A stretch of DNA of 64,000 nucleotides from a virus (IMGVR_UViG_3300017971_000228:1-64000), one strand, 5' to 3'; positions 1 to 42,265 are shown, numbered from the stretch's first letter. Notes: generated by a model not told the origin, from the sequence alone. A program made the numbers and translations.

Positions 1-2
1 AC

Positions 3-167
3 AACCTAGGCATGTACCGCATGAGTACATTCAACCCACCAGACCCATGCCTACACCATCCTGAGCTCAAGCTCGATCTCGACACCTACGAAGATTATCA
101 AAGACTGCTGGCCAGCGGGGTGGACATAGACATGACGGCGGCTGAGATTGTGAGGTGCTTCCTATGA
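3..167 (+). CDS. C-terminal fragment of a SpsF/NeuA-like cytidylyltransferase (5'-truncated)
   Basis: Frame 3 reads ...HPELKLDLDTYEDYQRLL...RCFL*, resembling the 'RLTVDTPED' C-terminal motif; stop overlaps neuB start (ATGA). Confidence 0.6.
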   Translation, partial: NLGMYRMSTFNPPDPCLHHPELKLDLDTYEDYQRLLASGVDIDMTAAEIVRCFL

Positions 168-1222
168 CGATCACTGAAGTATTCGACAAGTCCCCATCAT
201 ATCCCCTTCTGCGTCGCCCCTATCTCATCGCTGAGTGCGGCGTGAATCATGAGGGGAGCCTGGATCTGGCGCTGGAGCTGGTGCGGCTAGCAGCGCACGG
301 GGGAGCGGACGCGGTAAAGTTCCAGGCGTACCGCGCTGAGACGCTGGCTGTTACAGACAGTCCCGCATACTGGGACTTGCGTGAAGAACCGACGCTGAGC
401 CAGCGGGAGCTGTTCGCCAAGTACGACTTGTTGGGGGATGACGACTACCGCAGGCTGAAGGAAGAGTGCGACAAGTGCGGCGTGGACTTCCTGTTGACGC
501 CCTTCGATTTGCACTTCATCGAGCTGGCGGGTGAGCTGTGTCTGGCCATCAAGATTGCGTCGGCTGACATCACCTGCAAGCCGCTAGTGGAAGCGGTGGC
601 ACAGCAGGGCAAGCCGATACTTCTGTCCACGGGTGCGGCTACGTCGGAAGAGGTGGAGGACGCTATCGTCTGGACGCATGCCCTGCCGTTGGTACTTAGC
701 CATTGCGTTCTGAACTATCCGACGAAGGACATCAACGCCAACCTGAAGTACATCCCAGCGATGAAGGAGCGGTGGCCACAGTATTGGATGGGGTACTCGG
801 ACCACACTTTGCCGGGGGGCATGGAGGCGCTGGAAGCGGCGTGGTTGCTGGGCGCAGTGGTCTTGGAGAAGCACTTCACCCACGATAAGTACCTACGCGG
901 TAACGACCATTACCACGCCATGGACTGGCACGACATCGAAGACTTCCGCAAGTGGACGGACAGGGTGCTGAGGATGAGCCAGGTGGAGGACTTGACGAGC
1001 CAGGCACCTGCCATCCAGCACGCCAGGAGAAGTTTGGTGACGGCGGGGGTGCTGCCAGCGGGGCACAGGATCGACTACGATGATCTGACTTGGAAGCGTC
1101 CTGGCCACGGCATCAGCCCGAAGTCGGTAGACATCGTGGTGGGGATGATCACGTCGGGTTCGCTGGCAGCGGATCAGGTGCTGCAGTGGGAGAACTTGGT
1201 AATGGAGGTTAAGCATGGATAG
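164..1222 (+). CDS. neuB: N-acetylneuraminate/nonulosonate synthase (NeuB/PseI/SpsE family) with C-terminal SAF domain
   Basis: IAECGVNHEGS, GADAVKFQ, KIASAD, GYSDHT, EKHFT, DHYHAM, RRSLV...KRPGHGISP. Confidence 0.95.
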   Translation: MTITEVFDKSPSYPLLRRPYLIAECGVNHEGSLDLALELVRLAAHGGADAVKFQAYRAETLAVTDSPAYWDLREEPTLSQRELFAKYDLLGDDDYRRLKEECDKCGVDFLLTPFDLHFIELAGELCLAIKIASADITCKPLVEAVAQQGKPILLSTGAATSEEVEDAIVWTHALPLVLSHCVLNYPTKDINANLKYIPAMKERWPQYWMGYSDHTLPGGMEALEAAWLLGAVVLEKHFTHDKYLRGNDHYHAMDWHDIEDFRKWTDRVLRMSQVEDLTSQAPAIQHARRSLVTAGVLPAGHRIDYDDLTWKRPGHGISPKSVDIVVGMITSGSLAADQVLQWENLVMEVKHG

Positions 1223-1415
1223 ACTGCTCTGGATGGCTTTGCACAGCGTGTTCCACATCGTGCTGATGATCGCGTTTCTGAAGCTGCTGGGCAAGGTATT
1301 GGACATGACGATGCTGGAGAAGCGGCAGAAGAAGGCGTGGAGGTGGATGCTGTTCTTGCTGGTGTTTATCTATGGGGTGAGCAAGATGTGGTTTGCGAGA
1401 ATGTGGCTAGTATGA
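1215..1415 (+). CDS. Small membrane protein
   Basis: Two hydrophobic segments; GGAGG RBS; overlaps neighbours. Confidence 0.6.
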   Translation: MDRLLWMALHSVFHIVLMIAFLKLLGKVLDMTMLEKRQKKAWRWMLFLLVFIYGVSKMWFARMWLV

Positions 1416-1426
1416 AAGGAGAAGGA

Positions 1427-2495: not shown

Positions 2496-2909
2496 GTGGT
2501 TACAAAGTGCTATAGCTGCAGTCACTATGGCCACATGGTGTATCCGCTGGCAGGTGGAGAGAAGTGGGATTGGGTATGTAACCTTTGGAAACATCCGAAC
2601 GGCCCAGAGGGTAGTTGCGAATGGCACAGTCGCAATGCAGATGCGCAATCTGCCCCTGTGACACAATCTGATCCGCGCGAAGTTCGGGAAGATCCTGAAA
2701 GACGCAGGCAGTGGGGAATCATAGATCATGATGAAGATTACATTCTCATGAGAGATATGGATCGGAGGTTCTTGCTGGCCAGAGACCCGCATCCGGCCCG
2801 GGAATGGCATGTCCTTCGCGTTCCGGCTGATATGCTAACGGTAGAGGAAGCCCATGCTTGGACGTTCGGTCTGGCAGAAGATGAGTATAGGGTAGAACGA
2901 GAGTCATGA
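2496..2909 (+). CDS. Paralogue of the preceding gene: Cys-rich N-terminus plus DUF6745-like C-terminal module
   Basis: SDPREVREDPERRRQWG...WHVLRVPADMLTVEEAHAWTFGL aligns with the C-terminal half of 1704-2495. Confidence 0.6.
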   Translation: MVTKCYSCSHYGHMVYPLAGGEKWDWVCNLWKHPNGPEGSCEWHSRNADAQSAPVTQSDPREVREDPERRRQWGIIDHDEDYILMRDMDRRFLLARDPHPAREWHVLRVPADMLTVEEAHAWTFGLAEDEYRVERES

Positions 2910-3988
2910 TTGATGAACTTCGCTCCTACATGGAACGCCTCTTCCCGCTGCCTCGCTACCTGACAGGCGAGCCCAACCGAGAGACGCTGCGGATCCTGCG
3001 CGAGATTGTGCCGTTGACCATGATAGAGTACCCCTCGGGCATGCAGCTCTACGACAAGTGGGTCGTGCCAGATGAATGGCAGTGGGGCGCCAGACCGCTG
3101 CCACATGAGCAGATTCTGGGAGACGACGGGCGCCTGGACTTGAGCAAGCACGACGGTCAGTTCGTCAAGGGGGGAATGACGGTTGGCGAGTACCGACTGA
3201 AGGGCAAGTATCCACAGGAGTATCTCGTCTCCACCTACATTTGCCACCCATCCACGGCCAACGACAACCTGAGCGGCATGGTGCTGACGGCATTCCTGGC
3301 GCGGGAATTATCAAAGCTGGAGTTGAACTATTCGTGGCGGTTCATCTGGGTGCCGGAGACCATCGGGGCCATAGCTTACTTGCACGAGAACGAAGCGGAG
3401 ATGCAGGCCATAGACTGCGGGCTGGTGGTGACGTGCGTGGCGGGGCCGGGGGAGATTGGGTGGAAGATGTCCTTTGAGCCAGGACACAGGCTCAACAACA
3501 TTGTCACTACTGTCGTGGATACGTGGGCGGGGGGAGATACCCGCTATCCCTATGACACCGACGGCTCTGACGAACGTCAGTACAGCAAGCCAGGATTCGG
3601 GATCAACTGCTGCTCCATTCATTCAGGCAAGTACTATGAGTATTCCCAGTATCATACCAAGGCCGATGATCTGAGCTTTATCAGCTACGAACGAATGGTG
3701 AGGATGCGGGATATTTATTTGCGTGTGTGCTTGGTCATGGACCTAGATTTGGTTTACCTAAACTTGCAGCCGATGTGCGAGCCGAAGCTGGGGGAACGGG
3801 GGCTGTACGGAGACGACACCGTAGACGCAACGCTGGCGCTGTGCCAGTGGGCGGATGGAACGAGGCCGTTGTCTGTCATAGCACGGGATACGGGGATAGG
3901 GTTTGACAAGCTACATGGAGCGGCGAAACGGATGGTGAGATTGGGATTGCTGAAGGAGGGGGCGGTATGCAAACATACGTTGAGATGA
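2906..3988 (+). CDS. DUF4910 / M28 aminopeptidase-like polysaccharide-biosynthesis protein with C-terminal winged helix
   Basis: LFPLPRYLTG, STYICHPSTANDNLSG, VPETIGAI, GSDERQY, YHTKADDL, CEPKLGERGLY. Confidence 0.88.
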   Translation: MIDELRSYMERLFPLPRYLTGEPNRETLRILREIVPLTMIEYPSGMQLYDKWVVPDEWQWGARPLPHEQILGDDGRLDLSKHDGQFVKGGMTVGEYRLKGKYPQEYLVSTYICHPSTANDNLSGMVLTAFLARELSKLELNYSWRFIWVPETIGAIAYLHENEAEMQAIDCGLVVTCVAGPGEIGWKMSFEPGHRLNNIVTTVVDTWAGGDTRYPYDTDGSDERQYSKPGFGINCCSIHSGKYYEYSQYHTKADDLSFISYERMVRMRDIYLRVCLVMDLDLVYLNLQPMCEPKLGERGLYGDDTVDATLALCQWADGTRPLSVIARDTGIGFDKLHGAAKRMVRLGLLKEGAVCKHTLR

Positions 3989-4269
3989 GGTATAGACCGC
4001 CTGGGAAACCGACATCTCCTGGCAAGATCATTCGAGATGAGTTGAAAGCCAGGGGGTGGACGCAGAAGTATCTCGCTAAACTGATGGGCAGGCCAGAGCA
4101 AGCTGTGAGTGAGATCGTCAATGCCAAGAAACGGATCACTCCAGAGACTGCAGTCCAGCTAGGGGAGGCATTCGGGACATCAGCACTGTTTTGGGCAAAC
4201 CTGGAGACTCGTTATCGCATGGATCTCTTAGCAGAGTACGAAAGGGCACATGCCCAAGACAGCCATTGA
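3967..4269 (+). CDS. higA: HigA-family antitoxin / XRE HTH (orphan)
   Basis: SPGKIIRDELKARGWTQKYLAKLMG...SEIVNAKKRITPETAVQLGEAFGTSALFWANL. Confidence 0.85.
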   Translation: MQTYVEMRYRPPGKPTSPGKIIRDELKARGWTQKYLAKLMGRPEQAVSEIVNAKKRITPETAVQLGEAFGTSALFWANLETRYRMDLLAEYERAHAQDSH

Positions 4270-5380
4270 CCTACTAGCGGACCAGCACCAACGCTCGCAC
4301 GGCATCCTCACCGGCTCCGGCACGTCTGCGCTCATATTGTCATTGTGGGCCCTGGGGCTGAGGGGCAAGACCGTCGCCATTCCCAACGGGGTATGCTATT
4401 CGGTGCCGATGGCGGTGTATCTGTCGGGGAACAAGCCGATGTATGTGGATCTGGACTTAGACACACTGAGCCTGGGCATCACCGAGTTTGAGAAGTGGCG
4501 AAGTTACGATGCCGTAATTGCGGTTCACAATTATGGGGCGCGGTGCCACATCGAAGCTCTGAACAGGTTCTGCGCAGATCACAAGGTGCCCCTTATCGAG
4601 GACTGCTGCGTTTCGCTGGGTGCCAAGGACATAGGCCATTGGGGCGACTTGTCGGTATTCAGCTTTGGCAGCGGCAAGATCCTGGACGCGGGTGGAGGCG
4701 GCGCGATTCTCGGGGATGACGCCAGGCTGCTCCAGACAGCGCACTTGCTCCAGCAGAGCTTTGGCCCACGGGACGGGATGTTCAACGCAGAGGCTGCGCT
4801 GTCCATGGCGCACACGGCGCTATACAACCAGCATTACGCTACATCCCGACGTAAGTTAGTGGTATTCAAGTCAATGGTGGATCTGATGGGACCAAGGACG
4901 CTATGGAGTCCGGGATTCATGCAGCAGCATGGCATTCTCTACGACCTGCTACCCAAGCTCTGGCATATCGTCGGGGAACGCGAACGCAAGTGGCAGTACC
5001 TGCATGATGAGCTGAAGGACGTGGTGGACATTTTCATTCCGCCCGAAGGCTCAGTTCATTGGCGCTTCAACTGCTTCATCGAGAAGGATCGCGACGGGCT
5101 GATGCATCATCTGCAAGCCAAGGGTTACAACGCCAGTTCGTGGCATGCGCCAGGGGATCTGTTTTTTGAGCAGGGTTCGAGATGCGGCAGTTTTGATTGG
5201 TTAGACCAGATGTTGGTTGAGAAACCCAACTACAATGATGCGTGGGCATATTGGCCCGTCACCGACTGGGTAGCAGATCACATTCTCAATCTGTGGGTGG
5301 ATCAGGCAGCGGATGAAGACTATCTGAAGGGGGTGGTGAAGGAGGTGAGGGGGTGGCACGCAACTACGACCAGCTCGTAG
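4250..5380 (+). CDS. DegT/DnrJ/EryC1/StrS family PLP-dependent sugar aminotransferase
   Basis: SGTSALILSL, VHNYG, LIEDCC, FSFGSGKILDAGGGG. Confidence 0.88.
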   Translation: MPKTAIDLLADQHQRSHGILTGSGTSALILSLWALGLRGKTVAIPNGVCYSVPMAVYLSGNKPMYVDLDLDTLSLGITEFEKWRSYDAVIAVHNYGARCHIEALNRFCADHKVPLIEDCCVSLGAKDIGHWGDLSVFSFGSGKILDAGGGGAILGDDARLLQTAHLLQQSFGPRDGMFNAEAALSMAHTALYNQHYATSRRKLVVFKSMVDLMGPRTLWSPGFMQQHGILYDLLPKLWHIVGERERKWQYLHDELKDVVDIFIPPEGSVHWRFNCFIEKDRDGLMHHLQAKGYNASSWHAPGDLFFEQGSRCGSFDWLDQMLVEKPNYNDAWAYWPVTDWVADHILNLWVDQAADEDYLKGVVKEVRGWHATTTSS

Positions 5381-5714: not shown

Positions 5715-6024
5715 ATACTCCCTAAAGGATATTCCAATAGATGGCGTAGCAGTAACCGGCATAGCGCCCAAAGTACTCATCTACAAAGATTGCCGTCCTG
5801 GAGGTACTGCGACAGGCCAGTATGCCTATTGCGAGGGTTCACAGAAGTGGACGCTCTGGGACGAATGGATACGCATTCCGTACTTTCGCTTGCCAGGAGG
5901 TGAAATCATCTGGGGGCATCAGTGTTGGTGGACACTAGCTGACGGGACTGAAGGAACCGTGGAGGAAGAACAGGCCGCTTTGGAAGAACGCCTAGCAGAA
6001 ATGCGCGGGATGTTTCAGCCATGA
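5707..6024 (+). CDS. Hypothetical protein
   Basis: Overlaps both neighbours; GEIIWGHQCWW motif. Confidence 0.6.
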   Translation: MARYSLKDIPIDGVAVTGIAPKVLIYKDCRPGGTATGQYAYCEGSQKWTLWDEWIRIPYFRLPGGEIIWGHQCWWTLADGTEGTVEEEQAALEERLAEMRGMFQP

Positions 6025-6986
6025 GTTCGCGGTACTCCCTAGACCGAGTTCCCCTGGACAACGCCTGGGACGAGTTCGTTCAATCGTCTCCCGATCGCAC
6101 CATCTTCGCCCGCAAGCCTTACTTGGAAGGCGTGGGCGCTCAGCTCGGGACGTGGTTTTGCACCAAGGGGGAGCAGATCAAGGCAGCGTTCTTCGGTGTA
6201 GAGGGGGCGCATGGGCTAGAGGAAGATGACTTGGTGATCTATTCAGGCGTCCTTCACCAGAAGCCCGAGCCGGACCAGAATATCTCCCAAGCACGGTCTG
6301 ACAGGTTCAAGGTGATGGAGTTCATCGCGGCGGAGCTGCCCAAGACCTACAAAGTGATGGATTTTCAATTCAACACCAGCATCGTAGACATGCGTCCTTG
6401 GCTCTGGCATAACTATCACGAAGGCCCAAGGTATCAGGTGGAGGCGCGGTATACGAGCTACTTTGCGATTGGGCAGTATGGGTGGGGAGAGGAGGGTTCC
6501 AAGAGAGCGGGTGAGCAGATGAGCCAGAGCCGCCGGCAGCAGATCGCCTACGCGCAGCGGGACGGGATCAAGGTCATCCATACGAAGCCCTGCATAGACG
6601 CCTTCCTGAACTGGTACGGGCATACGGTAGAGGGGACGGATGCCTGGTTCGTATCACGCCTTCGGCACCTGCTGATTCATCTGGACAAGGTGAATCTGAC
6701 ACGGTGGTATGTGGCCCTGTCGCCGATGGGTGAGGGCAGGGCCTTGGCGGTCTTTGGTGTGGACGGGGGAAGGGCCTACTATCTCTGGGGAGCACGCCAG
6801 CCGGATCACAAGGACAGTCCGGCGGGCACGGAGGTGGTCTGGGAAGCGATGGTGGATCTGGCGAATCAGGGGATTCCGTGGACGGATTTGGAAGGCGTGA
6901 ACAGTCCGCGACGCGGATGGTTCAAGCTATCCTTTGGCGGAAGCCTGATTCCCTATTTCAGAGTGAGGTATGACGCATGCGTCTGA
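6021..6986 (+). CDS. GNAT/FemAB-like N-acyltransferase
   Basis: WDEFV, DMRPWLW, RAYYLWGA, DLEGVNSPRRGWFKLSFGG. Confidence 0.85.
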   Translation: MSSRYSLDRVPLDNAWDEFVQSSPDRTIFARKPYLEGVGAQLGTWFCTKGEQIKAAFFGVEGAHGLEEDDLVIYSGVLHQKPEPDQNISQARSDRFKVMEFIAAELPKTYKVMDFQFNTSIVDMRPWLWHNYHEGPRYQVEARYTSYFAIGQYGWGEEGSKRAGEQMSQSRRQQIAYAQRDGIKVIHTKPCIDAFLNWYGHTVEGTDAWFVSRLRHLLIHLDKVNLTRWYVALSPMGEGRALAVFGVDGGRAYYLWGARQPDHKDSPAGTEVVWEAMVDLANQGIPWTDLEGVNSPRRGWFKLSFGGSLIPYFRVRYDACV

Positions 6987-7174: not shown

Positions 7175-7377
7175 AGACTCGGGAATTTGAGGGCCAGCTA
7201 TGGATGCCGACAGGGCTTAAGTGTCCTGACTGTGGTATGGAGATGTGGGTTCAGGTTGATCCTGACTGTACTGAGCCAGGTGGGTGTCTGGAATGTGGGT
7301 ATCGCGGATGGAAGCATGGAGGATTCATGCCGAGCACTGAGGAGATGGTGGAGGAGTTTCTGAAATCATGCAAATAG
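7165..7377 (+). CDS. Small zinc-ribbon protein
   Basis: CPDC...CLEC. Confidence 0.55.
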   Translation: MRVKTREFEGQLWMPTGLKCPDCGMEMWVQVDPDCTEPGGCLECGYRGWKHGGFMPSTEEMVEEFLKSCK

Positions 7378-13468: not shown

Positions 13469-13498
13469 GCAGCCGTATACCCAGCACGAGGATAAGGG

Positions 13499-16007: not shown

Positions 16008-16032
16008 ATGATTACAATACAAGAGCCAACTT

Positions 16033-26605: not shown

Positions 26606-26619
26606 GGGGGTAAGGGACT

Positions 26620-27039: not shown

Positions 27040-27082
27040 TTCAACGAATCCTGAGTGATGGACGGATGAGGGGCTGAAGGGT

Positions 27083-27292: not shown

Positions 27293-27344
27293 ACCGAGAG
27301 GGGGGTTCATCATTTCAGGTGTAGGGCACATAGGAGGATAACCA

Positions 27345-29495: not shown

Positions 29496-29503
29496 GGGGG
29501 TGA

Positions 29504-33326: not shown

Positions 33327-36300
33327 ATGCCCTTTCTGAAGCAAGCTACTGCGGCCTGCCTGATGATGGGGCCGTTCGTGTCGGAGGATGACGGTTATTC
33401 AGCCTGCAATGACATTTCCATTGACGCCTCCATGGTACTCTTATCAAAGGCAGGCGCAGCTATAGCTGCCATGAACTCATCCACTAGCCCAGAACACTCA
33501 GGGAGTGGGTACTTCCAGGTTACGCTGGACACGACGGATACCGGAACGCTGGGAACCCTGAAGGTCGCAGTTAGCGTTAGTCCGACTCTTCCGGTCTGGG
33601 AGACCTATGATGTGCTGAGTTCCTGCGTCTGGGATGCCTGGTTCTCCGACGGCGCCAAGATGACGGTGGATGTGGACGGCGGGGTAGTCAGTGCATCAGA
33701 TCTGGTCAGCGCTTCAGACATCACCAGTGCGGTGATTCCAGCATCCAACATAGATGCCCAGATGAGTACGCTGGCGACGGCAGCAGGTGTTATCAGTGCT
33801 TCGGATGTCCTGGCAGCTTCCGATGTTCAGGCCAGTGCCTGCGCTGCCCTTTCAGCCTACAAGTTGGATCACTTGGTCTTTGAGGCAGATGCCGACGATC
33901 CTGCCGATAACTCCATCATCGCCAAGTTGGCTGCTTCGGGTGGAGACTGGAGTACTTTCACGGCTAGTCTAAACTCCCTTGAGGCGATGACGGATAATCA
34001 ATCAGACATTGTCACAGACACAGCTGAGATAGGTGCCGCAGGGGCCGGGCTTACGGCCGTACCATGGAATAGCGACTGGGATACCGAAGTCGAATCAGAA
34101 GTCGATGATGCCCTGGGGGGTGGTACTGGAACTGCTTTGACGGCCGTACCCTGGAACAGCGATTGGGACGCAGAGGTCCAGTCCGAAGTCAATGATGCCT
34201 TGGTAGCGTTGAAGCTGGATCACCTCATCGCTACATCAGAGGCCGATGACCCAGTAAACAACTCGATCATAGCGAAGCTGGCAGCTTCCGGGGGCGACTG
34301 GAGTACCTTTACCGCCAGTCTAAACTCACTGGAAGCCATTACGGACGACGTGGGCGATGTCAACGCTGCTACCGGAATCAGCGCCAGTGACGTGCTGAGT
34401 TCCAGCGATCTGGACAAAGCCCTGACAGACATCAACCTGGATCACCTGCTGAAGACGGCGACGGCCGGTTCAGATATGACCACCGAAGTCGCTGACAATA
34501 CCGTCATGGCCCGAATCCTGGCCAATGGTGACACTTCGGCCTTCGATCAGGGAACTGACGGACTACAGCTGATTCGAGACAAGCTAACGGACATTGAGAC
34601 TGATACCGGGGAAATTGGCGCTGCAGGGGCGGGCCTGACCCAGCTCGGGGGCATGGCAACCTCCATGATGGCAGAAGTGCAGTCTGAAGCGAATGATGCG
34701 CTAGTCGCCTTGAAGTTGGATCATCTAGTTGCAGCCGCTGAGAGTGACGATCCGGTAGACAATTCAATCATCGCCAAACTGGCAGCGAGTGGTGGTGATT
34801 GGAGCACGTTCACAGCAAGCCTGAATGCTCTGGAAGCGTTGGCAGATAATCAATCAGACATCGTAACGGATACGGCGGAGATAGGTGCGGCAGGTGCTGG
34901 GCTCACAGCCGTGCCCTGGAACAGTGATTGGGACACGGAAGTTGAGTCAGAAGTCGATGACGCACTGGGCGGTGGAACCGGGACAGCCTTGACGGCGATT
35001 CCCTGGAACTCTGACTGGGATACTGAGGTACAGTCCGAAGTGAACGACGCACTGGTAGCCTTGAAGCTAGATCACCTCATCGCCACCTCGGAAGCTGATG
35101 ACCCGGCGGACAATTCCATCATCGCCAAGCTCGCAGCCAGTGGGGGTGACTGGAGTACCTTTACCGCTAGCCTGAATTCACTGGAAGCTATCACGGATGA
35201 CGTGGGCGACATCAGTGCCGCCCAGAGTATCGCTGCATCTGATGTGCTAAGCTCTAGTGACTTGGACAAGGCACTGACCGACATCAATCTGGATCACCTA
35301 CTCAAGACAGCCACCGCTGGGTCAGATATGACGACTGAGGTGGCAGACAATACGATCATGGCCCGAATCCTGGCGAATGGCGATACATCAGCCTTCGATC
35401 AGGGGACTGACGGACTGCAACTGATCCGAGACAAGCTAACGGATATCGAGACGGACACCGGGGAGATTGGAGCCGCCGGGGCAGGTCTGACACAACTGGG
35501 CGGCATGGCAACCTCGATGATGGCAGAAGTGCAAAAAGAGGTTGACGACGCGCTAGTAGCTCAGAAGCTAGATCATCTAGTAAACGTAGCCGACAGCGAT
35601 GATGCGGCCGACAATTCACTGATAGCGAAGCTGGCGGCCAGTACGGGCGACTGGAGTGACTTCACGGGAAGCCTCAACTCGCTGGTGGTCATCACGAACA
35701 ACCAGGCCAACATTGAGACTGATACCGCAGAAATAGGCGCGGCTGGTGCCGGACTCACGCAACTGGGCGGATTATCAACCTGCATGATGGCTGAAGTTCA
35801 AAGCGAAGTCAACGACGCCCTGGTGGCAGTGAAGCTGGACCACCTCGTCTTCGCAGCGGAAACAGATGATGCGGCCGACAACTCTATCATCGCCAAGCTC
35901 GCTGCGTCAACAGGCGATTGGAGCGACTATACAGCCAGCTTGAATTCGATGGTCATCCAGACCACGAATCAGGCCAATATCGAAGCGGATACTCAGGATC
36001 TACAGTCACAGATCGGAACTGCGGGGGCCGGTCTCACGCAGTTGGGTGGTATGGCTACTTCTATGATGGCGGAAGTCCAGTCAGAAGTCAACGATGCTCT
36101 TGTGGCTCTGAATCTGGACCACCTGCTGGCCACAGCAACGGCTGGCTCGGACATGACGACAGAGGTAGTGGACAATACCATCCTGAGTAGGGTACTGGCC
36201 AATGGAGATACTTCAGCCTTTGACCCGACTACGGACGGGTTGCAGCTCATCAGAGACAAGCTATCAGACATTGAAACGGATACTGGAGAGATAGGTACGG

Positions 36301-37574
36301 CCGGGGCGGGGTTGACCCAACTCGGCGGAATGTCCACATCCATGATGGCTGAAGTGCAAAGTGAAGCCAATGATGCTTTGGTTGCCCAGAAGTTGGATCA
36401 CCTAGTCGCTGTAGCTGATGGCGATGATCCGGTCAATGATTCTATCATCGCCAAGATCACTGCCAGCACCGGTGACTGGAGTGACTTCAGCGCAAGCACC
36501 CAGTCCCTGGTTGTGCTGGCGACCAACCAGGCAAACATCGAGACCGATACGGCCGAAATAGGTACGGCGGGGGCTGGCCTTACCCAACTGGGCGGACTCT
36601 CCACCTGCGCTATGGCTGAAGTCCAGAAGGAAGTTGATGACGGTCTGGTTGCACAGAAACTGGACCACCTGGTTAACGTAGCTGACTCTGATGATCCTGC
36701 CGACAATTCCATCATGGCGAAGCTGGCTGCGTCGGGTGGGGACTGGAGTACCTTCAGCCCCAGTTCTGACGCCCTGGAAGCTCTGGCGGACAACCAGTCC
36801 GATATCGTGACGGACACAGCAGAGATAGGCGCAGCCGGGGCAGGGCTGTCAGCGATTCCCTGGAACTCTGACTGGGACACGGAGGTGGAGTCAGAAGTTG
36901 ACGATGCGTTGGGCGGGGGTACGGGAACATCACTCACAGCTGTCCCGTGGAATAGCGACTGGGACACGGAAGTCCAGAGCGAGGTCAACGACGCGCTGGT
37001 TGCGCTCAAGCTAGATCACCTGGTAGCAGCATCGGAATCTGACGATCCCGTTGACAACTCCATCCTAGCCAAGCTGGCTGCCAGCGGAGGGGATTGGAGC
37101 GCCTTCAGTCCCTCAAGCGATGCTCTGGAAGCGGTGACTGACAATATCAACCAGGTCAGCACTGCGACCGGACTCAGTGCTTCAGATGTACTGAGTGCCA
37201 GTGATCTGATAGCGGCGTCGGACATCGCCGACGCAGTCTGGGATGAAACCAGCGCGGGGCATACCGATGCCGGCAAGGCCGGGCTACAGATGTGGACCGA
37301 CGTCGATGCCATCCTATCAGATACGGGAACGGACGGGGTGGTCCTATCTACGGCGACGCAGCAGTCCATTGCCGATGAAACGCTGAAGCGGGATGTGTCC
37401 AACGTAGAGAGCAGTGCTTGTGATCACTCGCTGACGACTATCGTTCTGGCCACACTGGAATCCAGTACGGCGGCCTCGGTCTGGACCATCAAGCAGACGG
37501 ATGGGTCCACAACCTACCAGACGAAGACACTGACGCTTGACGGCTCGGCGAGCGCGATCACTGGGGTGTCCTAG
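33327..37574 (+). CDS. 1415-aa modular repeat fibre/appendage protein
   Basis: Recurrent LDHL...DNSIIAKLAASGGDWS, DTAEIGAAGAGLT, PWNSDWDTEV and ANGDTSAFD modules. Confidence 0.8.
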   Translation: MPFLKQATAACLMMGPFVSEDDGYSACNDISIDASMVLLSKAGAAIAAMNSSTSPEHSGSGYFQVTLDTTDTGTLGTLKVAVSVSPTLPVWETYDVLSSCVWDAWFSDGAKMTVDVDGGVVSASDLVSASDITSAVIPASNIDAQMSTLATAAGVISASDVLAASDVQASACAALSAYKLDHLVFEADADDPADNSIIAKLAASGGDWSTFTASLNSLEAMTDNQSDIVTDTAEIGAAGAGLTAVPWNSDWDTEVESEVDDALGGGTGTALTAVPWNSDWDAEVQSEVNDALVALKLDHLIATSEADDPVNNSIIAKLAASGGDWSTFTASLNSLEAITDDVGDVNAATGISASDVLSSSDLDKALTDINLDHLLKTATAGSDMTTEVADNTVMARILANGDTSAFDQGTDGLQLIRDKLTDIETDTGEIGAAGAGLTQLGGMATSMMAEVQSEANDALVALKLDHLVAAAESDDPVDNSIIAKLAASGGDWSTFTASLNALEALADNQSDIVTDTAEIGAAGAGLTAVPWNSDWDTEVESEVDDALGGGTGTALTAIPWNSDWDTEVQSEVNDALVALKLDHLIATSEADDPADNSIIAKLAASGGDWSTFTASLNSLEAITDDVGDISAAQSIAASDVLSSSDLDKALTDINLDHLLKTATAGSDMTTEVADNTIMARILANGDTSAFDQGTDGLQLIRDKLTDIETDTGEIGAAGAGLTQLGGMATSMMAEVQKEVDDALVAQKLDHLVNVADSDDAADNSLIAKLAASTGDWSDFTGSLNSLVVITNNQANIETDTAEIGAAGAGLTQLGGLSTCMMAEVQSEVNDALVAVKLDHLVFAAETDDAADNSIIAKLAASTGDWSDYTASLNSMVIQTTNQANIEADTQDLQSQIGTAGAGLTQLGGMATSMMAEVQSEVNDALVALNLDHLLATATAGSDMTTEVVDNTILSRVLANGDTSAFDPTTDGLQLIRDKLSDIETDTGEIGTAGAGLTQLGGMSTSMMAEVQSEANDALVAQKLDHLVAVADGDDPVNDSIIAKITASTGDWSDFSASTQSLVVLATNQANIETDTAEIGTAGAGLTQLGGLSTCAMAEVQKEVDDGLVAQKLDHLVNVADSDDPADNSIMAKLAASGGDWSTFSPSSDALEALADNQSDIVTDTAEIGAAGAGLSAIPWNSDWDTEVESEVDDALGGGTGTSLTAVPWNSDWDTEVQSEVNDALVALKLDHLVAASESDDPVDNSILAKLAASGGDWSAFSPSSDALEAVTDNINQVSTATGLSASDVLSASDLIAASDIADAVWDETSAGHTDAGKAGLQMWTDVDAILSDTGTDGVVLSTATQQSIADETLKRDVSNVESSACDHSLTTIVLATLESSTAASVWTIKQTDGSTTYQTKTLTLDGSASAITGVS

Positions 37575-37834: not shown

Positions 37835-38132
37835 AGTTCACATGAACGATACGGGGGCCTCCATCATCTGCCTCATCCGGGAGGGGACGGCGGCCCTGGA
37901 CATAGGATCTGCTACGGCGATGGCCATTCACTATCAGAAGCCGGATGCTACAACGGGATCCTGGTCGGCGTCGCTGTACACCGACGGTTCGGACGGGAAG
38001 ATGTTCTACGAAACGGCGGCCTCTTCGGACCTGTCTGCGTCGGGGTGGTGGAGCATCCAGCCAGCCTTCACGCTGGGCGACTGGACAGGGCGGGCGGAGA
38101 CCAAGGAATTCGAGGTGCTGGCGAACATCTAG
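37827..38132 (+). CDS. BppU-like Ig-fold structural protein
   Basis: NDTG...LDIGSAT...KPD...DG...Y.....DL...G.W..Q. Confidence 0.6.
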   Translation: MPEVHMNDTGASIICLIREGTAALDIGSATAMAIHYQKPDATTGSWSASLYTDGSDGKMFYETAASSDLSASGWWSIQPAFTLGDWTGRAETKEFEVLANI

Positions 38133-38145
38133 GGGGATTATCATT

Positions 38146-38676
38146 ATGGCTTACGGTAGCGCATCGGGGGTCGCAGCCCTCTGCAAGCACCTCACTAACG
38201 AAGGCGACGGGGCCTTCAACAACGACACGACACCTACTCGTCGGCAGGTGCTGGCCTTCCTGGACGACGGCTCTGCGCTGATGGACGCGGAGATCGCCCA
38301 GCATGGGTTTACTACACCCGTCTCTGCCAGTCTGGTGGTAGCGGTACTGGACCCCATCGCGGAGTACTACGCCGCGGCCATGGCGGAGAGCATCGAAACG
38401 GTCTCCCGTTCTGACTGGCAGGGGACCAGCGAGAGCTCGAAGCCGACGCACTGGATGGACATGCACCGCGACTCCATGGACCGGATCCTGTCGGAACGGG
38501 GACGGGCGCTGGCTATTCTGGGAGCGGGGAGGGGCGTGGACCTGTCGGAGTACCTGCATGCCGGCGGGCTGAGTGAGGATGAGAAGGACACCTGGGAAAG
38601 TGACAGCGACTTCATTCAGCCACGGTTCAAGGTGGGGATGATGGAATACAAGACGGTAGACTGGAGAACGGTGTAG
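38146..38676 (+). CDS. Head-tail adaptor/connector
   Basis: MAYGSASGV...TTPT...V; position. Confidence 0.6.
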   Translation: MAYGSASGVAALCKHLTNEGDGAFNNDTTPTRRQVLAFLDDGSALMDAEIAQHGFTTPVSASLVVAVLDPIAEYYAAAMAESIETVSRSDWQGTSESSKPTHWMDMHRDSMDRILSERGRALAILGAGRGVDLSEYLHAGGLSEDEKDTWESDSDFIQPRFKVGMMEYKTVDWRTV

Positions 38677-39598: not shown

Positions 39599-39622
39599 AT
39601 GGACTGAGTCGAAAGGAAGGAG

Positions 39623-40801
39623 GTGCGGTTGCGATTTCTGTTCGTAGTAGCGGACAGCGCCCGCGAATGGAACTGTTCGGAATGGCGGGTGGCAATCCCG
39701 ATGAGGGCGATTAACAACACAGAGGGTCACAGCGCAGTGGCGATAAACTGGGAGCAATTCGGGCATTTTGAGAGACCGGATGTCCAAGACGTGGTTATGC
39801 CGGCGGATCTGGTGATCTACCAGCGGAATCTCTTTTGTGAACCGTACTTCTCAGCCGTCGAGTACTTCCAGGGGCTGGGCAAGCCGTTCATCCTGGACCT
39901 GGACGACTCCTATCCCATCTTGCCCTGGAGCAACCCAGCCCATGGGTTCTGGATCCAGAACGTCCGGAAGATGGACCCGGAGCCGCTGAAGGGGCTGGAG
40001 ATCGGGGTACAGCTGGTGGACGCGGTGTCGAGTCCCAGCAAGATGATCTGCCAGGACTGGGCGCATCTGAACACGCCGATCTGGCTACCCAACTTCGCAG
40101 AAGGTGGATGGTACAAGGACTTGCCGGGCAAGGCGGAAGAACTGAAGGACCGGATTGTCATTGGCTGGGGGGGCAGCATCAGCCACTATGATGGGTTCTG
40201 GCTCTCAGGGGTGCGGCAGGCGCTGGAGAACATCTGCCAACGAAGACCGGAGGTACTGTTCAAGTTCTGCGGGAACGACGGGCGAATCTATCTCCAGCTT
40301 CCGGTAGGTACATCGCAGAAGATGTGGCAGCAGGGGGTGCCGCCCAGCCAGTGGCCCAAGGTCATCTCTACCTTCGACATCGGGCTGGCGCCGCTAGACC
40401 TTATCGGGGGGTATGAATCACGCAAGAGCTGGCTGAAGGGGCTGGAGTACATGCTGGCAAAGGTGCCCTGGATAGGTAGCGATGGGCCATCCTACAGCGA
40501 CCTGCGGCATCATGGGCTGATGGTAGGCAACAGCCCGGCAGAGTGGGAAGAGGCACTGGAATACATGATAGACCATCTCGAAGAGGAGAAGGAGAAGGCG
40601 GCGGGTGAACCCTATGAATGGGCGCAGACGCTGACGATGGAGAACAACGTAGGGTTCTACGTTCAACTGGCACAGAAGATGGCGGGGCTAAGGTCGGCGG
40701 CAATGGGGCTGCCGGGGTTAATGCACGTAGGGGCGAAGCGACCGATAAGCGTGAAGGACGTGACACCACTGGAGGATCTGATCTATGTCAAAGCTGCTTG
40801 A
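39623..40801 (+). CDS. Glycosyltransferase (GT-B, GT4-like)
   Basis: WRVAIP, YQRN, DLDD, LPN, IGWGGSISH, DIGLAPL, KSWLKGLEY. Confidence 0.85.
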   Translation: MRLRFLFVVADSAREWNCSEWRVAIPMRAINNTEGHSAVAINWEQFGHFERPDVQDVVMPADLVIYQRNLFCEPYFSAVEYFQGLGKPFILDLDDSYPILPWSNPAHGFWIQNVRKMDPEPLKGLEIGVQLVDAVSSPSKMICQDWAHLNTPIWLPNFAEGGWYKDLPGKAEELKDRIVIGWGGSISHYDGFWLSGVRQALENICQRRPEVLFKFCGNDGRIYLQLPVGTSQKMWQQGVPPSQWPKVISTFDIGLAPLDLIGGYESRKSWLKGLEYMLAKVPWIGSDGPSYSDLRHHGLMVGNSPAEWEEALEYMIDHLEEEKEKAAGEPYEWAQTLTMENNVGFYVQLAQKMAGLRSAAMGLPGLMHVGAKRPISVKDVTPLEDLIYVKAA

Positions 40802-40994
40802 CGTTGAGGGGTTGCTGGACGAACGGGAGCCGCTGCAGCGCGGGGTATACCAGTTCGTGACGACTTGGTATGAACGACTGAAGCTAGAATACGAAGGAGT
40901 GAATCTGGGAGAATGCCTACAATACAACCTGAGCCAACTGTGCAACCATCGGGTGCTGGCGGAGATGGAGAAGGCACGGGCCAAACCGCTGTGA
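40785..40994 (+). CDS. Hypothetical protein (possible N-terminal partner of the next gene)
   Basis: LEYEGVNLGECL; overlaps both neighbours. Confidence 0.5.
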   Translation: MSKLLDVEGLLDEREPLQRGVYQFVTTWYERLKLEYEGVNLGECLQYNLSQLCNHRVLAEMEKARAKPL

Positions 40995-42265
40995 AGCCGG
41001 TCATCGTCCTGAGTGGGGGGCCCGCGGTCGTTCCCCTGGTAGCGAAGTTCGACGGGGACGGGAAGGTGACGGACCCGCTACTGTCGGGGGAGTACGATCT
41101 GGCATTCCTGTACCCGCAGGTAGCAGACCAGTTCAGGGGACGGGGACTGGAGTGCTTCAAGATTGACGACGGGACGACGGGGCAGGACAACAACGACGCT
41201 ATCAACTGGGCAGTTCAGAAGGCGATGCCGCTTCTGGCGTCACTGAAGGGTAGAAAGCAAAGCCGAATACGGGAGTGCTTCCCGCAGGACCAGCGGATTC
41301 TCAAAGTGGTGAGCGGGGGGTTGCTGGACTGGATGCCGGGGTACGTGGTCTCGTCGATGGCGCGGATGCACATGCGCATCACGGTCTGGAAGCGGTTCTG
41401 GGATTCGCATGACGTCCGGCTGGTGGTGACGCACGAGGACGTGGCAGAGGACACGAAGGCCCTGGTGCAGTTTGCCAGGGCGCAGGGAACGCCGACGCTG
41501 CACGTGCCGCACTTCAACCATGGCAGTCTGCCGAGGCCCATGCCGGACCTACATGACTCTATCAACTGTGACTACGCAGCGGTAGCAGGGACCTACATGC
41601 GGGGGTGGCTGGCGGAGAGGGGCATGGACCCGGACCATATCCGCATCACGGGGCATCCTGCCTGGGACCGATACGCGCACATCAACCCGGACCGCTACTG
41701 GGCGCGGGCGATGATGCGGCTGAATCCGGCAAGGAAAGCGGTCTGCTATGCAGCGGACTGGGTGCTCTGGACGACGCTATGCTACCACGAGCATACCCCG
41801 CAGGCAGGGTGGCGGGCGATGCTGGGAGCAGCCAAGGCGCTGACTCAGGAGGGGTGGATACTCATCTGCAAGGCACACCCGGGGGCCAAGGAGACCAACG
41901 CGGCATGGCACGCTAAGACAGCGGAGGACACAGGCGTGGAATGCGTGGTCACTGACAGGCATCTGGATGTGGTGCTACAGGCTGCGGATGTGTTTGTGAG
42001 CAACGGATTCTCAAACATCATCGCTGAAGCGGCCATGGCGGGGGTGCCGGGCATCACGCTGGGGCCGGGGTATCTGGATGAACCGGCGGTGCCGGGGGTA
42101 GAGTACGATGCGGAGGCGCTGTACCTGAAGATCAAGGAGGTCCAGGCGACCAGGGAGGCATGGCAGGAGAAGTTGCTGCCGGCTTTCATGACTCGCTTCG
42201 TCGGGCCGAATGACGGGCAGGCAGCGGATCGCATCGTGGAGTGGTGTCGGGAGTTGGCAGGATAA
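40991..42265 (+). CDS. GT-B fold protein (capsule-synthesis / CDP-glycerol transferase / epimerase-like); candidate CMP-nonulosonate transferase
   Basis: HVPH, ITGHPAWD, CKAHPG, SNIIAEA...GVP, DGQAADRI. Confidence 0.65.
   Translation: MKPVIVLSGGPAVVPLVAKFDGDGKVTDPLLSGEYDLAFLYPQVADQFRGRGLECFKIDDGTTGQDNNDAINWAVQKAMPLLASLKGRKQSRIRECFPQDQRILKVVSGGLLDWMPGYVVSSMARMHMRITVWKRFWDSHDVRLVVTHEDVAEDTKALVQFARAQGTPTLHVPHFNHGSLPRPMPDLHDSINCDYAAVAGTYMRGWLAERGMDPDHIRITGHPAWDRYAHINPDRYWARAMMRLNPARKAVCYAADWVLWTTLCYHEHTPQAGWRAMLGAAKALTQEGWILICKAHPGAKETNAAWHAKTAEDTGVECVVTDRHLDVVLQAADVFVSNGFSNIIAEAAMAGVPGITLGPGYLDEPAVPGVEYDAEALYLKIKEVQATREAWQEKLLPAFMTRFVGPNDGQAADRIVEWCRELAG

Follow-up and report, generated by a model that had tools for sequence, protein, structure and literature searches.

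A predicted phage-encoded ulosonic-sugar pathway and glycosylation system in three blocks tied to morphogenesis genes

Introduction

Why should a phage encode a sugar pathway among the genes that build its particle, and what would that sugar be attached to? The locus that raises these questions lies in a window of 64,000 nucleotides, positions 1-64000 of a circularly assembled phage genome of 98,106 bp (G000). An initial annotation had proposed a pathway that makes and tailors an activated sialic-acid-like sugar, its genes grouped in three blocks within the morphogenesis region, and this outline is upheld here. Since the assembly is circular (terminal repeat, 123 bp), the two record ends join and the sugar cluster runs through them. 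G000 is an uncultured phage, and genes for a large serine recombinase and for a CI-like repressor mark it as temperate.

Gene identities were drawn from Pfam, NCBIfam, PHROG, PDB, the ESM Atlas, and AF2 models searched with Foldseek. Orthologues were compared with a complete, diverged relative of 98,979 bp (G001), which retains all three blocks together; 20 sugar genes have counterparts at the corresponding three places in G001, with identities of 34-67%.

Results

The ulosonic-sugar cassette

Block 1 extends from genome 92.3 kb, over the record ends, to window 15.5 kb. Directly upstream of the window are a KdnB-type oxidase (an Fe-ADH), a full DegT aminotransferase, a PseG-like hydrolase and a second cytidylyltransferase. 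The features listed are:

genome 96047-97054, just outside the window: PseG-like hydrolase, 335 aa
genome 97458-97982, just before window position 1: second cytidylyltransferase, 174 aa (75 bits)
155-1222, + strand: NeuB-family ulosonate synthase with SAF domain (Pfam NeuB 197.8 bits)
2906-3988, + strand: DUF4910 (M28-like) protein with wHTH (HTH_47), a cassette member (Pfam 220 bits)
3967-4269, + strand: HTH_3 regulator within the sugar cluster (Pfam HTH_3 41.3 bits)
4250-5380, + strand: second DegT-family PLP enzyme (Pfam 112 bits, N-terminal half only)
6021-6986, + strand: FemAB-type GNAT (Acetyltransf_6), candidate amino-sugar N-acylase (Pfam 24.9 bits, barely above cut-off)
8028-8846, + strand: GT2 glycosyltransferase, soluble, no TM segment (Pfam 56.5 bits)
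9059-10099, + strand: conserved 346-aa protein of unknown function (no Pfam or PDB match)
10599-11192 and 11033-11899, + strand: two SAM-dependent methyltransferases (Pfam Methyltransf_23/11/25), the second of uncertain start
11896-12978, + strand: URO-D/MtaA-like protein (Pfam URO-D 46.3 bits; 46% orthologue in G001)
12971-13468: His_Phos_1 protein (Pfam)
13499-13885: RF-1 domain protein (Pfam)
14477-15529, + strand: 350-aa cytidylyltransferase-like protein, N-terminal CTP_transf_3 and an unknown C-terminal part (Pfam 27.7 bits)

Pfam matches bear out the NeuB, DUF4910, DegT, GNAT, GT2 and two methyltransferase genes that had been annotated before the portal. Of two SpsF-like cytidylyltransferases described there, one is in the window (14477-15529) and the other lies outside it. 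The HTH_3, URO-D-like, His_Phos_1 and RF-1 domain genes, and a trypsin-like gene further on, had been missed. Orthologues in G001 were found for NeuB (51%), the 350-aa protein (51%), the GT2 (50%), the second DegT (43%), the 346-aa protein (42%, matching position), the GNAT (34%) and both methyltransferases; the HTH_3 regulator had no match there. The 350-aa protein has weak KdsB matches, and in the fragment G004 a 326-aa CTP_transf_3 ORF stands ahead of the portal. The second DegT retains its PLP Lys and Asp, and the URO-D/MtaA-like protein could possibly carry out corrinoid-dependent methyl transfer.

The first two genes of the cassette, the Fe-ADH and a DegT, adjoin in both G000 and G001. 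Along its whole length the Fe-ADH matches the Kdo 8-oxidase KdnB (PDB 5k8c), at 224 bits, against at most 102 bits for ordinary Fe-ADHs. Asp189, His193, His257 and His271, which we regard as the family's metal ligands, are invariant in its homologues. The neighbouring DegT scores 76 bits against the solved structure of KdnA and 134 bits against that of another enzyme; that it is not closest to KdnA counts against our proposal.

These enzymes had been framed as a pseudaminic/legionaminic acid (Pse/Leg) pathway. A canonical pathway of this type could borrow a host 4,6-dehydratase, with the DegT acting as PseC/LegC on host UDP-4-keto-6-deoxy-HexNAc and the Fe-ADH having an unrelated tailoring role. 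Keto-sugars of that type are made by many bacteria, and the top NCBIfam matches are PseC, at 188 bits, for the 399-residue DegT and PseG, at 112 bits, for the 335-aa protein. Both scores, however, are far under the equivalog cut-offs, and NeuB, also below cut-off, scores higher with the NeuB_NnaB model (238 bits) than with PseI (182 bits). A KdnB-type ulosonate oxidase heads the cluster, and 9-deoxy sugars would offer KdnB no terminal alcohol to oxidise. The dehydratase and nucleotidase steps had been reported missing from the window, and so they are; a PseG-like hydrolase lies just outside, but no 4,6-dehydratase (Polysacc_synt_2 or Epimerase-family SDR) is present in complete G000 or G001, so that the suggested search upstream for PseB/LegB finds none in the whole genome. 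We consider the canonical pathway quite improbable. On these sequence comparisons, the likeliest product of the cassette is an omega-aminated ulosonic acid.

Bacterial relatives of the cassette

The order KdnB, DegT, PseG-like, cytidylyltransferase, NeuB (then DUF4910 and Fem-GNAT) is also found in a cassette common on bacterial metagenome contigs. In 31 metagenome loci the sequence runs on for at least 6 kb beyond a KdnB-like gene on the downstream side. NeuB was within 8 kb of that gene in 27 of these, a gene like that of the 174-aa cytidylyltransferase was present in 24 and a PseG-like gene in 15, in the same order as in the phage. One of these loci clearly belongs to a bacterial chromosome. 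At the head of the cassette in most of the longer bacterial loci stands the Fe-ADH, with DegT adjoining, as in the phages, which again argues against a canonical Pse/Leg pathway, as does the lack of an adjoining 4,6-dehydratase in the bacterial loci sampled. NeuB of the bacterial cassettes is 43-52% identical to that of the phage; the DUF4910 protein comes after NeuB in G001 and in eight bacterial loci, and the FemAB-type GNAT is present in four bacterial cassettes. Block 1 is, on the evidence of sequence and gene order, a captured bacterial cassette, and we count both its origin and its order as established. The NeuB-adjacent cytidylyltransferase is 174 aa in the phage and 238 aa in bacteria, a difference that counts against our proposal.

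Block 2 and the head genes

The portal, capsid and tail operons, which hold blocks 2 and 3, are headed by promoter-plus-terminator leaders. The first two leaders, with the head genes and block 2, are:

15979-16080, + strand: promoter-like site, then strong hairpin terminator, ahead of the portal operon
16097-20289, + strand: Mu-type portal, phrog_24776 protein, trypsin-like protein and XkdF-type prohead protease (Pfam, PHROG)
16097-17572, + strand: Mu-type portal (Pfam Portal_Mu 105.6 bits)
18165-18980, + strand: trypsin-like protein (Pfam Trypsin_2)
19375-20289, + strand: XkdF-type prohead protease (Pfam Peptidase_S78_2)
20434-21063, + strand: TylF/Methyltransf_24 O-methyltransferase, accessory (Pfam 81.8 bits)
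21080-22411, + strand: B12-binding radical SAM enzyme (Pfam B12-binding 49.2, Radical_SAM 49.5 bits)
22371-24145, + strand: paralogous sulfotransferase-fold pair, accessory (ESM Atlas, high-scoring match; TM 0.70 to Sulfotransfer_3 clusters)
24132-25262, + strand: alkaline-phosphatase-superfamily (sulfatase-family) protein (Pfam Sulfatase 52.5 bits)
25290-25412, + strand: second promoter and hairpin-terminator leader, ahead of the scaffold/capsid operon
25413-28307, + strand: scaffold-like protein, two 139-aa paralogues (candidate decoration proteins) and major head protein (orthologues in G001 and wider relatives)
27345-28307, + strand: major head protein (phrog_1005, 288 bits)

G001 has a hairpin in the place corresponding to the first leader, and its second leader has the same architecture with a different sequence. 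The methyltransferase and B12 radical SAM enzyme annotated after the protease are both confirmed by Pfam. The latter has a 56% orthologue in G001 and weak PDB matches to AprD4 and TokK; neither the TylF methyltransferase nor the sulfotransferase-fold pair has a match in G001. The two sulfotransferase-like genes find support in their predicted fold, although they have no Pfam match. Membership of the Pfam sulfatase family likewise stands, but S-D-P-N-F replaces the C/S-x-P-x-R formylglycine motif and the motif Arg is missing. This change is conserved in G001 (47% orthologue); the protein has Ser at the nucleophile position and keeps D18 and D191-H192. The labels sulfatase and sulfotransferase are valid at superfamily level only.

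The transferase pair at the neck-tail junction

Block 3 comprises the two GT-B proteins that had been noted between neck and tail tube, and these are confirmed:

37945-38676, + strand: neck/tail-junction protein (homologue directly 5' of the transferase pair in L016-L027)
39623-40801, + strand: GT4-like GT-B glycosyltransferase (AF2 model of low confidence)
40913-42265, + strand: TagF/TagB-like GT-B protein (Pfam Glyphos_transf 26.8 bits; AF2 model of very high confidence)
42290-42345, + strand: third hairpin-terminator leader, ahead of the tail-tube genes
42334-43266, + strand: two paralogous major tail (tube) proteins, candidate glycan acceptors (PHROG major tail protein)

The pair stands between the neck gene, which always precedes it, and the tail tube, whose homologues follow it, in 14 phage-like contigs (G000, G001, one Omnitrophota-bin contig and 11 IMG/VR contigs). 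The GT4-like protein is the most conserved of the system, at 67% identity in G001 and 34-41% in the 12 further contigs. Identities of the pair track those of the major capsid protein, that is, they diverge in step, and by these comparisons the pair is a vertically inherited, fixed part of the neck-tail junction in this phage lineage.

The GT4-like model has its best Foldseek matches in MshA/BshA/GlgM (TM 0.54-0.57); its low confidence counts against our proposal. In the TagF-like family, K-x-H-P and Y-A-S-S-W motifs are nearly invariant and the profile matches the TagF-like polymerase Cps3D (E 1e-6), so we regard the protein as a candidate CMP-ulosonate transferase. Its model, however, is closest to NeuC, a hydrolysing UDP-GlcNAc 2-epimerase (Z 23.1), rather than TarL (Z 20.0), and the protein could therefore be a biosynthetic enzyme instead; this top match also counts against our proposal.

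It may be asked whether the blocks belong together at all. The pair might glycosylate virions with host nucleotide sugars or CDP-alcohols, block 1 being an unrelated auxiliary cassette and block 2 modifying something else, such as a protein side chain. Both transferases are without an assigned donor and the B12 radical SAM enzyme has weak matches only. Homologues of the pair were not seen beside any of 79 bacterial cassettes, which counts against our own proposal as well. Five fragment records holding the pair (G002-G006) were searched for NeuB and CTP_transf_3; in G002, G004 and G006 no NeuB was seen, but these are just 25-38% complete, and NeuB and/or CTP_transf_3 was found in three of the five. 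The pair thus accompanies NeuB or a cytidylyltransferase in five of seven records examined (G000, G001, G003, G004 and G005), against NeuB matches in three of 50,697 GenBank phage records, and G001 keeps the three blocks together. Separate functions are distinctly unlikely.

The target of the sugar

Virions had been named as the more likely target, and this preference is sustained, on grounds other than the co-orientation with late genes first offered, which carries little weight since almost every gene of G000 is on the + strand. What favours virions is the conserved neck-tail position of the pair, the late-operon leaders and the absence of machinery at the membrane: TM segments are missing from all the sugar enzymes, and G000 has no polytopic membrane protein except a holin-like ORF and two small ORFs.

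The CMP-sugar of block 1 could instead pass to host glycoconjugate machinery (LPS, capsule, flagellin or S-layer), so that lysogeny or infection changes the surface, for example in superinfection exclusion or receptor masking, and not the virion. This reading is kept alive by the temperate nature of the phage with its recombinase and repressor. The cassette presumably serves surface glycans in its bacterial sources, two block 1 proteins have Tat-signal-like N-termini, and Acinetobacter offers known cases of prophage genes that modify the nonulosonates of the capsule (PMC12053666, PMC6586298). The HTH_3 regulator inside block 1 points the same way, and also counts against our proposal, as block 1 of a temperate phage could be expressed in lysogeny. 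Yet the genome encodes no flippase, polymerase or lipid-carrier priming transferase, blocks 2 and 3 lie within structural operons behind their leaders, and the pair is fixed at the neck-tail junction. Host-surface modification is possible but unlikely.

Elsewhere, G000 encodes a TET-associated glycosyltransferase (TAGT, 133.7 bits) and several DNA methylases, and the activated sugar might be put on phage DNA bases. No Tet/JBP dioxygenase is present in the genome, however, the TAGT has no match in G001, where the sugar system is preserved in full, and we know of no CMP-ulosonate DNA modification. Such hypermodification is very improbable.

Discussion

The reading that we favour, and to which we would give about an even chance from the genes at hand, is a self-contained, three-block protein-glycosylation system directed at virions. 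Our inferences on product chemistry, on the donor that each transferase would use, on the acceptor and on timing are as follows. The PseG-like hydrolase would free a hexosamine from a host nucleotide sugar, and NeuB would join it with PEP to give a nine-carbon (possibly eight-carbon) ulosonic acid. The KdnB-type Fe-dependent oxidase would convert the terminal alcohol to an aldehyde and the adjacent DegT would convert this to an amine, with no need of a 4,6-dehydratase. The KdsB-like cytidylyltransferase would yield the CMP-sugar. Tailoring may involve the FemAB-type GNAT, second DegT, DUF4910 protein, methyltransferases and URO-D-like protein, and block 2 may add further decorations through the B12 radical SAM and alkaline-phosphatase-superfamily enzymes and, in this phage, the TylF and two sulfotransferase-fold proteins. 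Late in infection, the block 3 pair and the block 1 GT2 would act together in the cytoplasm to assemble a short glycan chain on proteins of the virion; the acid sugar, activated as its CMP form, would be added by the TagF-like enzyme.

Among known systems, the Shewanella Kdo8N pathway shares the KdnB-like oxidase, adjacent DegT and KdsB-like cytidylyltransferase, and the logic of oxidation, transamination and activation without a 4,6-dehydratase. It differs in that the phage cassette is centred on NeuB instead of KdsA, so that the substrate is probably a nonulosonate; the phage DegT is not closest to KdnA, the cytidylyltransferase is shortened, and the setting is a phage, not an LPS core locus. 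With the CMP-Pse, CMP-Leg and CMP-Neu5Ac pathways (PseBCHGIF, LegBCHGIF, NeuCBA; SpsC-G in B. subtilis) the phage has in common NeuB with SAF, a DegT, a PseG-like GT-B hydrolase and a CTP_transf_3 cytidylyltransferase. Unlike them it has a KdnB-type oxidase, sub-cut-off equivalog scores, no dehydratase and no recognised PseH-type GNAT.

The TagF-like protein recalls the Tannerella forsythia Pse/Leg transferases, which have a TagB-like GT-B domain with an HP motif (PMC5420450), and the TagF/TarL polymerases, in its GT-B fold, Glyphos_transf signature and HP motif; the TagB-domain and TagF-type enzymes use cytidine-nucleotide donors. The phage protein is only weakly related to them in sequence, and its best fold is NeuC. 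As in Maf/FlmG flagellin O-glycosylation, a soluble transferase would use a CMP-nonulosonate to modify Ser/Thr of a structural protein that is still unassembled in the cytoplasm, although no Maf/MptE-like domain was found in G000 or G001.

Actinobacteriophages that glycosylate their virions reportedly depend on host nucleotide sugars and encode the glycosyltransferases within the structural operon. The phage described here, known from its genes, resembles them in having soluble transferases in a structural operon, and its proposed acceptors are likewise capsid or tail-tube proteins, the subunits glycosylated in actinophages (Freeman 2023, as cited in PMC12619734). Its transferases share no more than a remote relationship (24-25% identity) with glycosyltransferases of Streptomyces phage Zuko and Arthrobacter phage Atuin. 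Unlike the actinobacteriophages, this phage encodes a pathway of about 20 genes for a predicted acidic amino sugar of its own.

Proposed pathway and genome context

The analysis establishes family assignments, gene order, absences and conservation. We suggest, tentatively, that in an uncultured lineage of temperate tailed phages the particles may carry a coat of an omega-amino nonulosonic acid not described before, which NeuB, a KdnB-type oxidase and an aminotransferase would make without a dehydratase. The same route could be a widespread, uncharacterised sialic-acid-like pathway of bacteria from which the phage cassette was captured.

The window covers positions 1-64000 of a 98,106-bp IMG/VR record, a circular assembly with a 123-bp direct terminal repeat, so that going 'upstream' from window position 1 leads into the end of the record. 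Both GC content (0.52-0.62) and GC skew are even along the whole length, the + strand carries nearly all genes, and no tRNA genes were found. We regard the virus (G000) as a temperate tailed phage on the basis of three genes:

54610-56136, minus strand, large serine recombinase
57041-57610, minus strand, CI-like HTH protein
52549-54045, Amidase_2 endolysin

Directly 3' of the endolysin, a 112-aa ORF with three hydrophobic segments (54052-54390) is probably the holin. A megablast search with a 16-kb query gave no nucleotide match to GenBank phages, and no isolate has a terminase more than 50% identical to this one. The terminase large subunit, which the initial annotation had proposed to look for upstream, is encoded at genome 84845-86299; the distance from there to the portal gene (window 16097-17572) is about 29 kb and is taken up by auxiliary genes, most of them for sugar enzymes.

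Some further features are recorded here. A 1043-aa N6/N4 DNA methylase (genome 73602-76733) has its domain in three separate stretches, with weak intein-splicing and LAGLIDADG matches within it. A 1415-aa protein between the head and neck genes (33327-37574) has no family match, and a 195-residue stretch is the only part kept in the relative G001 described below. There are five tandem pairs of paralogues: 139-aa proteins ahead of the MCP gene (26186-27039), proteins of 351 and 240 aa behind it (28440-30226), a pair in which the DNA methylase domain is represented by its C-terminal piece alone (30230-31415), sulfotransferase-like proteins (22371-24145) and two tail-tube proteins (42334-43266).

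Pfam, NCBIfam and PHROG scans bore out nearly every gene named in the original proposal of a phage nonulosonic-acid pathway in three blocks. HTH_3 regulator, URO-D/MtaA-like, histidine phosphatase, RF-1-domain and trypsin-like proteins had been passed over.

Conservation and transcription of the three blocks

G001 (IMGVR_UViG_3300014613_000020; 98,979 bp, CheckV 100%) is a complete relative that has most of its genome in common with G000 at 30-67% amino-acid identity, and it keeps all three blocks in the same order and places. Its block 1 holds the KdnB-like oxidase (54% identity), the full-length DegT aminotransferase DegT-399 (66%), the PseG-like protein (46%), NeuB (51%) and a counterpart of the 174-aa cytidylyltransferase that is likewise short (50%). 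With these are DUF4910, the second aminotransferase DegT-376, Fem-GNAT, GT2, the 346-aa unknown protein, both methyltransferases, the URO-D-like protein and a 350-aa cytidylyltransferase, and the portal comes next. The B12 radical SAM (56%) and sulfatase-family (47%) proteins of block 2 lie in the protease-scaffold interval, and the GT4-like (67%) and TagF-like (45%) proteins of block 3 lie behind the neck genes. At E 1e-6, no match was found in G001 to the TylF methyltransferase, sulfotransferase-like pair, histidine phosphatase, RF-1 protein or HTH_3 regulator, and from this comparison these look like accessories of G000.

Just 5' of the portal gene (15979-16080) lies a consensus promoter, and no more than about 35 nt beyond it come a 13-bp GC-rich hairpin and a T-run. 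The scaffold gene has a near-identical unit ahead of it (25290-25412) and the tail-tube genes a related hairpin (approximately 42290-42345), and the portal and scaffold genes of G001 have the same leader architecture in other sequences. These three related promoter-plus-hairpin-terminator leaders suggest antitermination control of the late genes. By their positions, block 2 is internal to a portal-protease operon and block 3 forms the last part of a capsid-neck operon; block 1, upstream of the first leader, could be transcribed separately. That the three blocks are functionally unlinked is a reading we consider unlikely, and the retention of the whole layout in G001 speaks against it.

Block 1 and the missing dehydratase

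The sugar cluster runs on across the record ends, where four more genes lie upstream of NeuB:

genome 92328-93392, Fe-ADH, KdnB-like
genome 93691-94890, full-length DegT aminotransferase; best NCBIfam model PseC, 188 bits
genome 96047-97054, PseG-like protein; 112 bits against a cut-off of 153.55
genome 97458-97982, 174-aa cytidylyltransferase; best models KdsB-type

The nucleotidase step had been listed as missing along with the first dehydratase, but it is present, because the PseG-like gene lies upstream of NeuB. The dehydratase is indeed absent genome-wide: no match to PF02719 (Polysacc_synt_2) or PF01370 (Epimerase, SDR) was found at E<=1 in six-frame searches of G000 and G001, while controls matched in 14 of 14 genomes, and the suggested upstream search for a PseB/LegB-type enzyme was negative in both phages. 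Two cytidylyltransferases exist as first described, but only one lies in the window (14477-15529, a weak match), the other being the 174-aa gene just beyond the terminal repeat. The presence of both may mean that the function is split or that there are two activated sugars. Another protein, of 346 aa (9059-10099), was considered as a second cytidylyltransferase and rejected. The GNAT is an acyltransferase, of FemAB type (Acetyltransf_6) and barely above the cut-off.

Identification of the product as pseudaminic or legionaminic acid did not hold up, given the lack of a dehydratase and scores below the equivalog cut-offs. NeuB scored 182.5 bits against the PseI model TIGR03586 (cut-off 340.25) and higher, 238.4 bits, against the NeuB_NnaB model; for NeuB/LegI, TIGR03569 gave 238.4 bits against a cut-off of 399.65. 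DegT-399 reached 188 of the 423.5 bits set for PseC, and the 24 bits for PseF (cut-off 205.7) were exceeded by KdsB-type models (68.5). Judged from these profiles, homology to PseC, PseG and PseF is clear at the family level, as a canonical pseudaminic or legionaminic route with a host-supplied dehydratase would have it; with the equivalog levels missed, we hold that route to be quite improbable. NeuB itself sits in a large unnamed clade with relatives 50-55% identical. It matches 3 of 50,697 GenBank phage records, and as a single query it retrieved no relative from IMG/VR.

Two small proteins of block 1 (7368-7850 and 14086-14490) have twin-arginine-signal-like N-termini (MQIARRQFLK... and MDRRELLKKLLGG...). 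A possible corrinoid theme is seen in the URO-D/MtaA-like protein and 165-aa histidine phosphatase, both within 11896-13885, and the B12-binding radical SAM protein (21080-22411); the histidine phosphatase family includes CobC alpha-ribazole phosphatases. An RF-1-domain (ArfB-like) protein (13499-13885) lies beside the cluster with the FemAB-type acyltransferase, which possibly uses aminoacyl-tRNA.

A predicted KdnB-type oxidase and a possible KdnA-like partner

The Fe-ADH matches PDB entry 5k8c (KdnB, 3-deoxy-D-manno-octulosonate 8-oxidase) over its full length (residues 9-353, 224 bits) and, at 232 bits, 3rf7, whose deposited name is only iron-containing alcohol dehydrogenase; the next-best Fe-ADHs in the PDB score no more than 102 bits. 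D189, H193, H257 and H271 are invariant among its homologues. In a collection of 5.8 billion proteins, relatives of about 50% identity belong to Desulfovibrio-type and other bacteria and mostly bear the name Kdo 8-oxidase, whereas IMG/VR yielded the gene only from G001 and from a duplicate fragment. The enzyme is thus predicted to be a KdnB-type ulosonate oxidase. When Shewanella makes Kdo8N, the terminal alcohol of Kdo is first oxidised by KdnB, and the resulting aldehyde is then transaminated by KdnA, a DegT-family enzyme. Both phages have a DegT gene adjoining the oxidase, as do 67 of 79 bacterial loci; the G000 protein scores 76 bits with KdnA (5k8b), against 134 bits for its best match among solved structures. 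By analogy, the pair would provide the carbonyl for a terminal amination without a 4,6-dehydratase. We found no paper in the literature searched that ties an Fe-ADH to nonulosonate synthesis.

Linkage to NeuB in bacteria suggests that the substrate is a nonulosonate. A metagenome scan with the KdnB-like profile gave 80 loci, one of them the G001 record, and the phage sugar proteins were compared with the remaining 79. Where at least 6 kb lay 3' of the KdnB-like gene, NeuB occurred within 8 kb in 27 of 31 loci (at least 40% identical to phage NeuB in 24 of the 27), a homologue of the short cytidylyltransferase in 24 of 31 and a PseG-like gene in 15 of 31. The commonest order, KdnB-DegT-PseG-like-cytidylyltransferase-NeuB, at times with DUF4910 and Fem-type GNAT, is identical to that of the phage; a second variant lacks the PseG-like gene and has a DegT of another kind. 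On a 367-kb contig, the genes around one locus encode RecN, NAD kinase, PmbA/TldD and a MarR regulator, and the locus is therefore bacterial chromosome; its PseG-like protein is fused to an NTP-transferase-like domain, and its cytidylyltransferase is 238 aa long. On gene order and identity, the core of block 1 is a captured bacterial cassette, and we did not find this cassette, widespread among the metagenome loci (L033-L111), described in the literature searched.

The cytidylyltransferase beside NeuB is 174-175 aa in both phages against 238 aa in one bacterial cassette (L099:13901-14617), the C-terminal part being missing from the phage form. In the same operon (L099:9983-16956) a MarR regulator comes before and a MaoC-dehydratase/SDR fusion after.

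Enzymes between protease and scaffold

The gene first called a sulfatase does match Pfam Sulfatase at superfamily level (52.5 bits), but the formylglycine motif C/S-x-P-x-R is replaced by S51-D-P-N-F, as in the G001 orthologue, and the protein is better called an alkaline-phosphatase-superfamily enzyme. Pairing it with the radical SAM protein as an anaerobic sulfatase and its maturase was rejected, the latter having a B12 domain and the former lacking the motif. The putative sulfotransferase-like pair has no Pfam match and takes its name from the ESM Atlas, where Sulfotransfer_3 clusters match at a score of 0.97 and TM 0.70. Its N-terminal loops, GPLNNLTT and GPYRNLTS, depart from the usual PAPS-binding loop (basic-residue-Ser-Gly-Thr-Thr). 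In the conserved core of block 2, the B12 radical SAM protein and the Ser-nucleophile alkaline-phosphatase-fold enzyme might methylate or otherwise edit the sugar, a phospho- or sulfo-group being put on or taken off.

A transferase pair among the structural genes

Block 3 (TRANSFERASES) encodes the GT4-like (39623-40801) and TagF-like (40913-42265) proteins. Scanning with the TagF-like family added 11 IMG/VR contigs and a single contig from an Omnitrophota bin; the genome scan used a narrower alignment (A3, A2 being too diverse) and gave one genome locus only. GenBank phages have zero TagF-like homologues. All 12 contigs have a homologue of 37945-38676, then the GT4-like and the TagF-like gene, and tail-tube homologues come next where the contig is long enough (10 of the 11 IMG/VR contigs); as in G000 and G001, the pair lies between neck gene and tail tube. 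This order lies downstream of an MCP about 40% identical to that of G000. The identity of the GT4-like protein (34-41%) tracks that of the MCP (40-42%), a parallel that favours vertical inheritance together with the structural genes over mobile insertion. The pair is a core part of the structural module of a phage lineage. The records of five relatives, fragments 25-38% complete, were searched whole; NeuB was found in two and CTP_transf_3 in two, beside the terminase or portal. In a distant relative (G003:C1:24958-25563) the NeuB match has one in-frame TGA.

The GT4-like model is mediocre (pLDDT 62.6), but its nearest folds are the retaining GT4 enzymes MshA, BshA and GlgM and the modelled protein is clearly GT-B; its family profile had no sequence match in the PDB. 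The TagF-like protein scores 26.8 bits with Glyphos_transf (PF04464; gathering 22.1), and its 66-member family profile matches the TagF-like capsule polymerase Cps3D at E 1e-6. H322-P323, in a K-x-H-P motif, is almost invariant across the 66 homologues, and a Y-A-S-S-W motif is kept, which we take to be the counterpart of the TagF-type Y-A-P-T-W. Related ESM Atlas clusters are labelled Glyphos_transf, Epimerase_2 or Capsule_synth. By fold (model pLDDT 93, VIA-align), NeuC (Z 23.1) and other UDP-GlcNAc 2-epimerases (21-22) outrank TarL (20.0) and TagF (18.6), as would be expected of a NeuC-like biosynthetic enzyme. However, the gene is always paired with the GT4-like gene at the neck-tail junction, and a homologue is missing from all 79 bacterial cassettes. 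In Tannerella, the transferases for nonulosonates contain a TagB-like domain that has an HP motif (PMC5420450). The likeliest role of the TagF-like protein is that of a candidate CMP-ulosonate transferase. No match to the Maf/MptE-like domain PF01973 was found in G000 or G001 at E<=1.

Virion, host surface or DNA

We infer that the acceptors are virion proteins and that the sugar is attached late. The alternative, modification of the host surface, is somewhat unlikely in our estimation, although the temperate lifestyle and the regulator inside the cluster would suit it and prophage enzymes that edit capsule nonulosonates are known. Membrane segments are predicted in none of the sugar enzymes; in all of G000 the only ORFs with at least two are the holin-like one and two small ones, and no flippase, polymerase or lipid-carrier transferase was found. 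A TAGT (TET-associated glycosyltransferase; 133.7 bits) is encoded beside the terminase at genome 83330-84166 and has no match in G001. DNA hypermodification, to which it might point, seems extremely improbable and was set aside, as G000 has no Tet/JBP dioxygenase anywhere.

Sialic-acid-like sugars at the surface of bacteria control immune recognition, the adsorption of phages and motility. If a phage does make such a sugar and place it on its own particle, virions would be modified in a way that is new and that would bear on host range, stability, adhesion to mucus or biofilm, and antibody recognition. The bacterial cassette, for its part, predicts aminated nonulosonic acids of a new class. 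Being small, it can be expressed in a laboratory strain, so that both questions are open to direct test.

Relation to known systems

Actinophages are known to glycosylate their virions through structural-operon transferases, and bacteria to have nonulosonate pathways and to make Kdo8N. Phage nonulosonate glycosylation of virions was not found in the literature searched. What is new here is the joining of nonulosonate, Kdo8N-type and structural-operon glycosylation features in one phage, the tie between a KdnB-type dehydratase-free route and NeuB, a candidate transferase that is TagF/epimerase-like instead of Maf-type, and a three-block layout that is kept in a relative.
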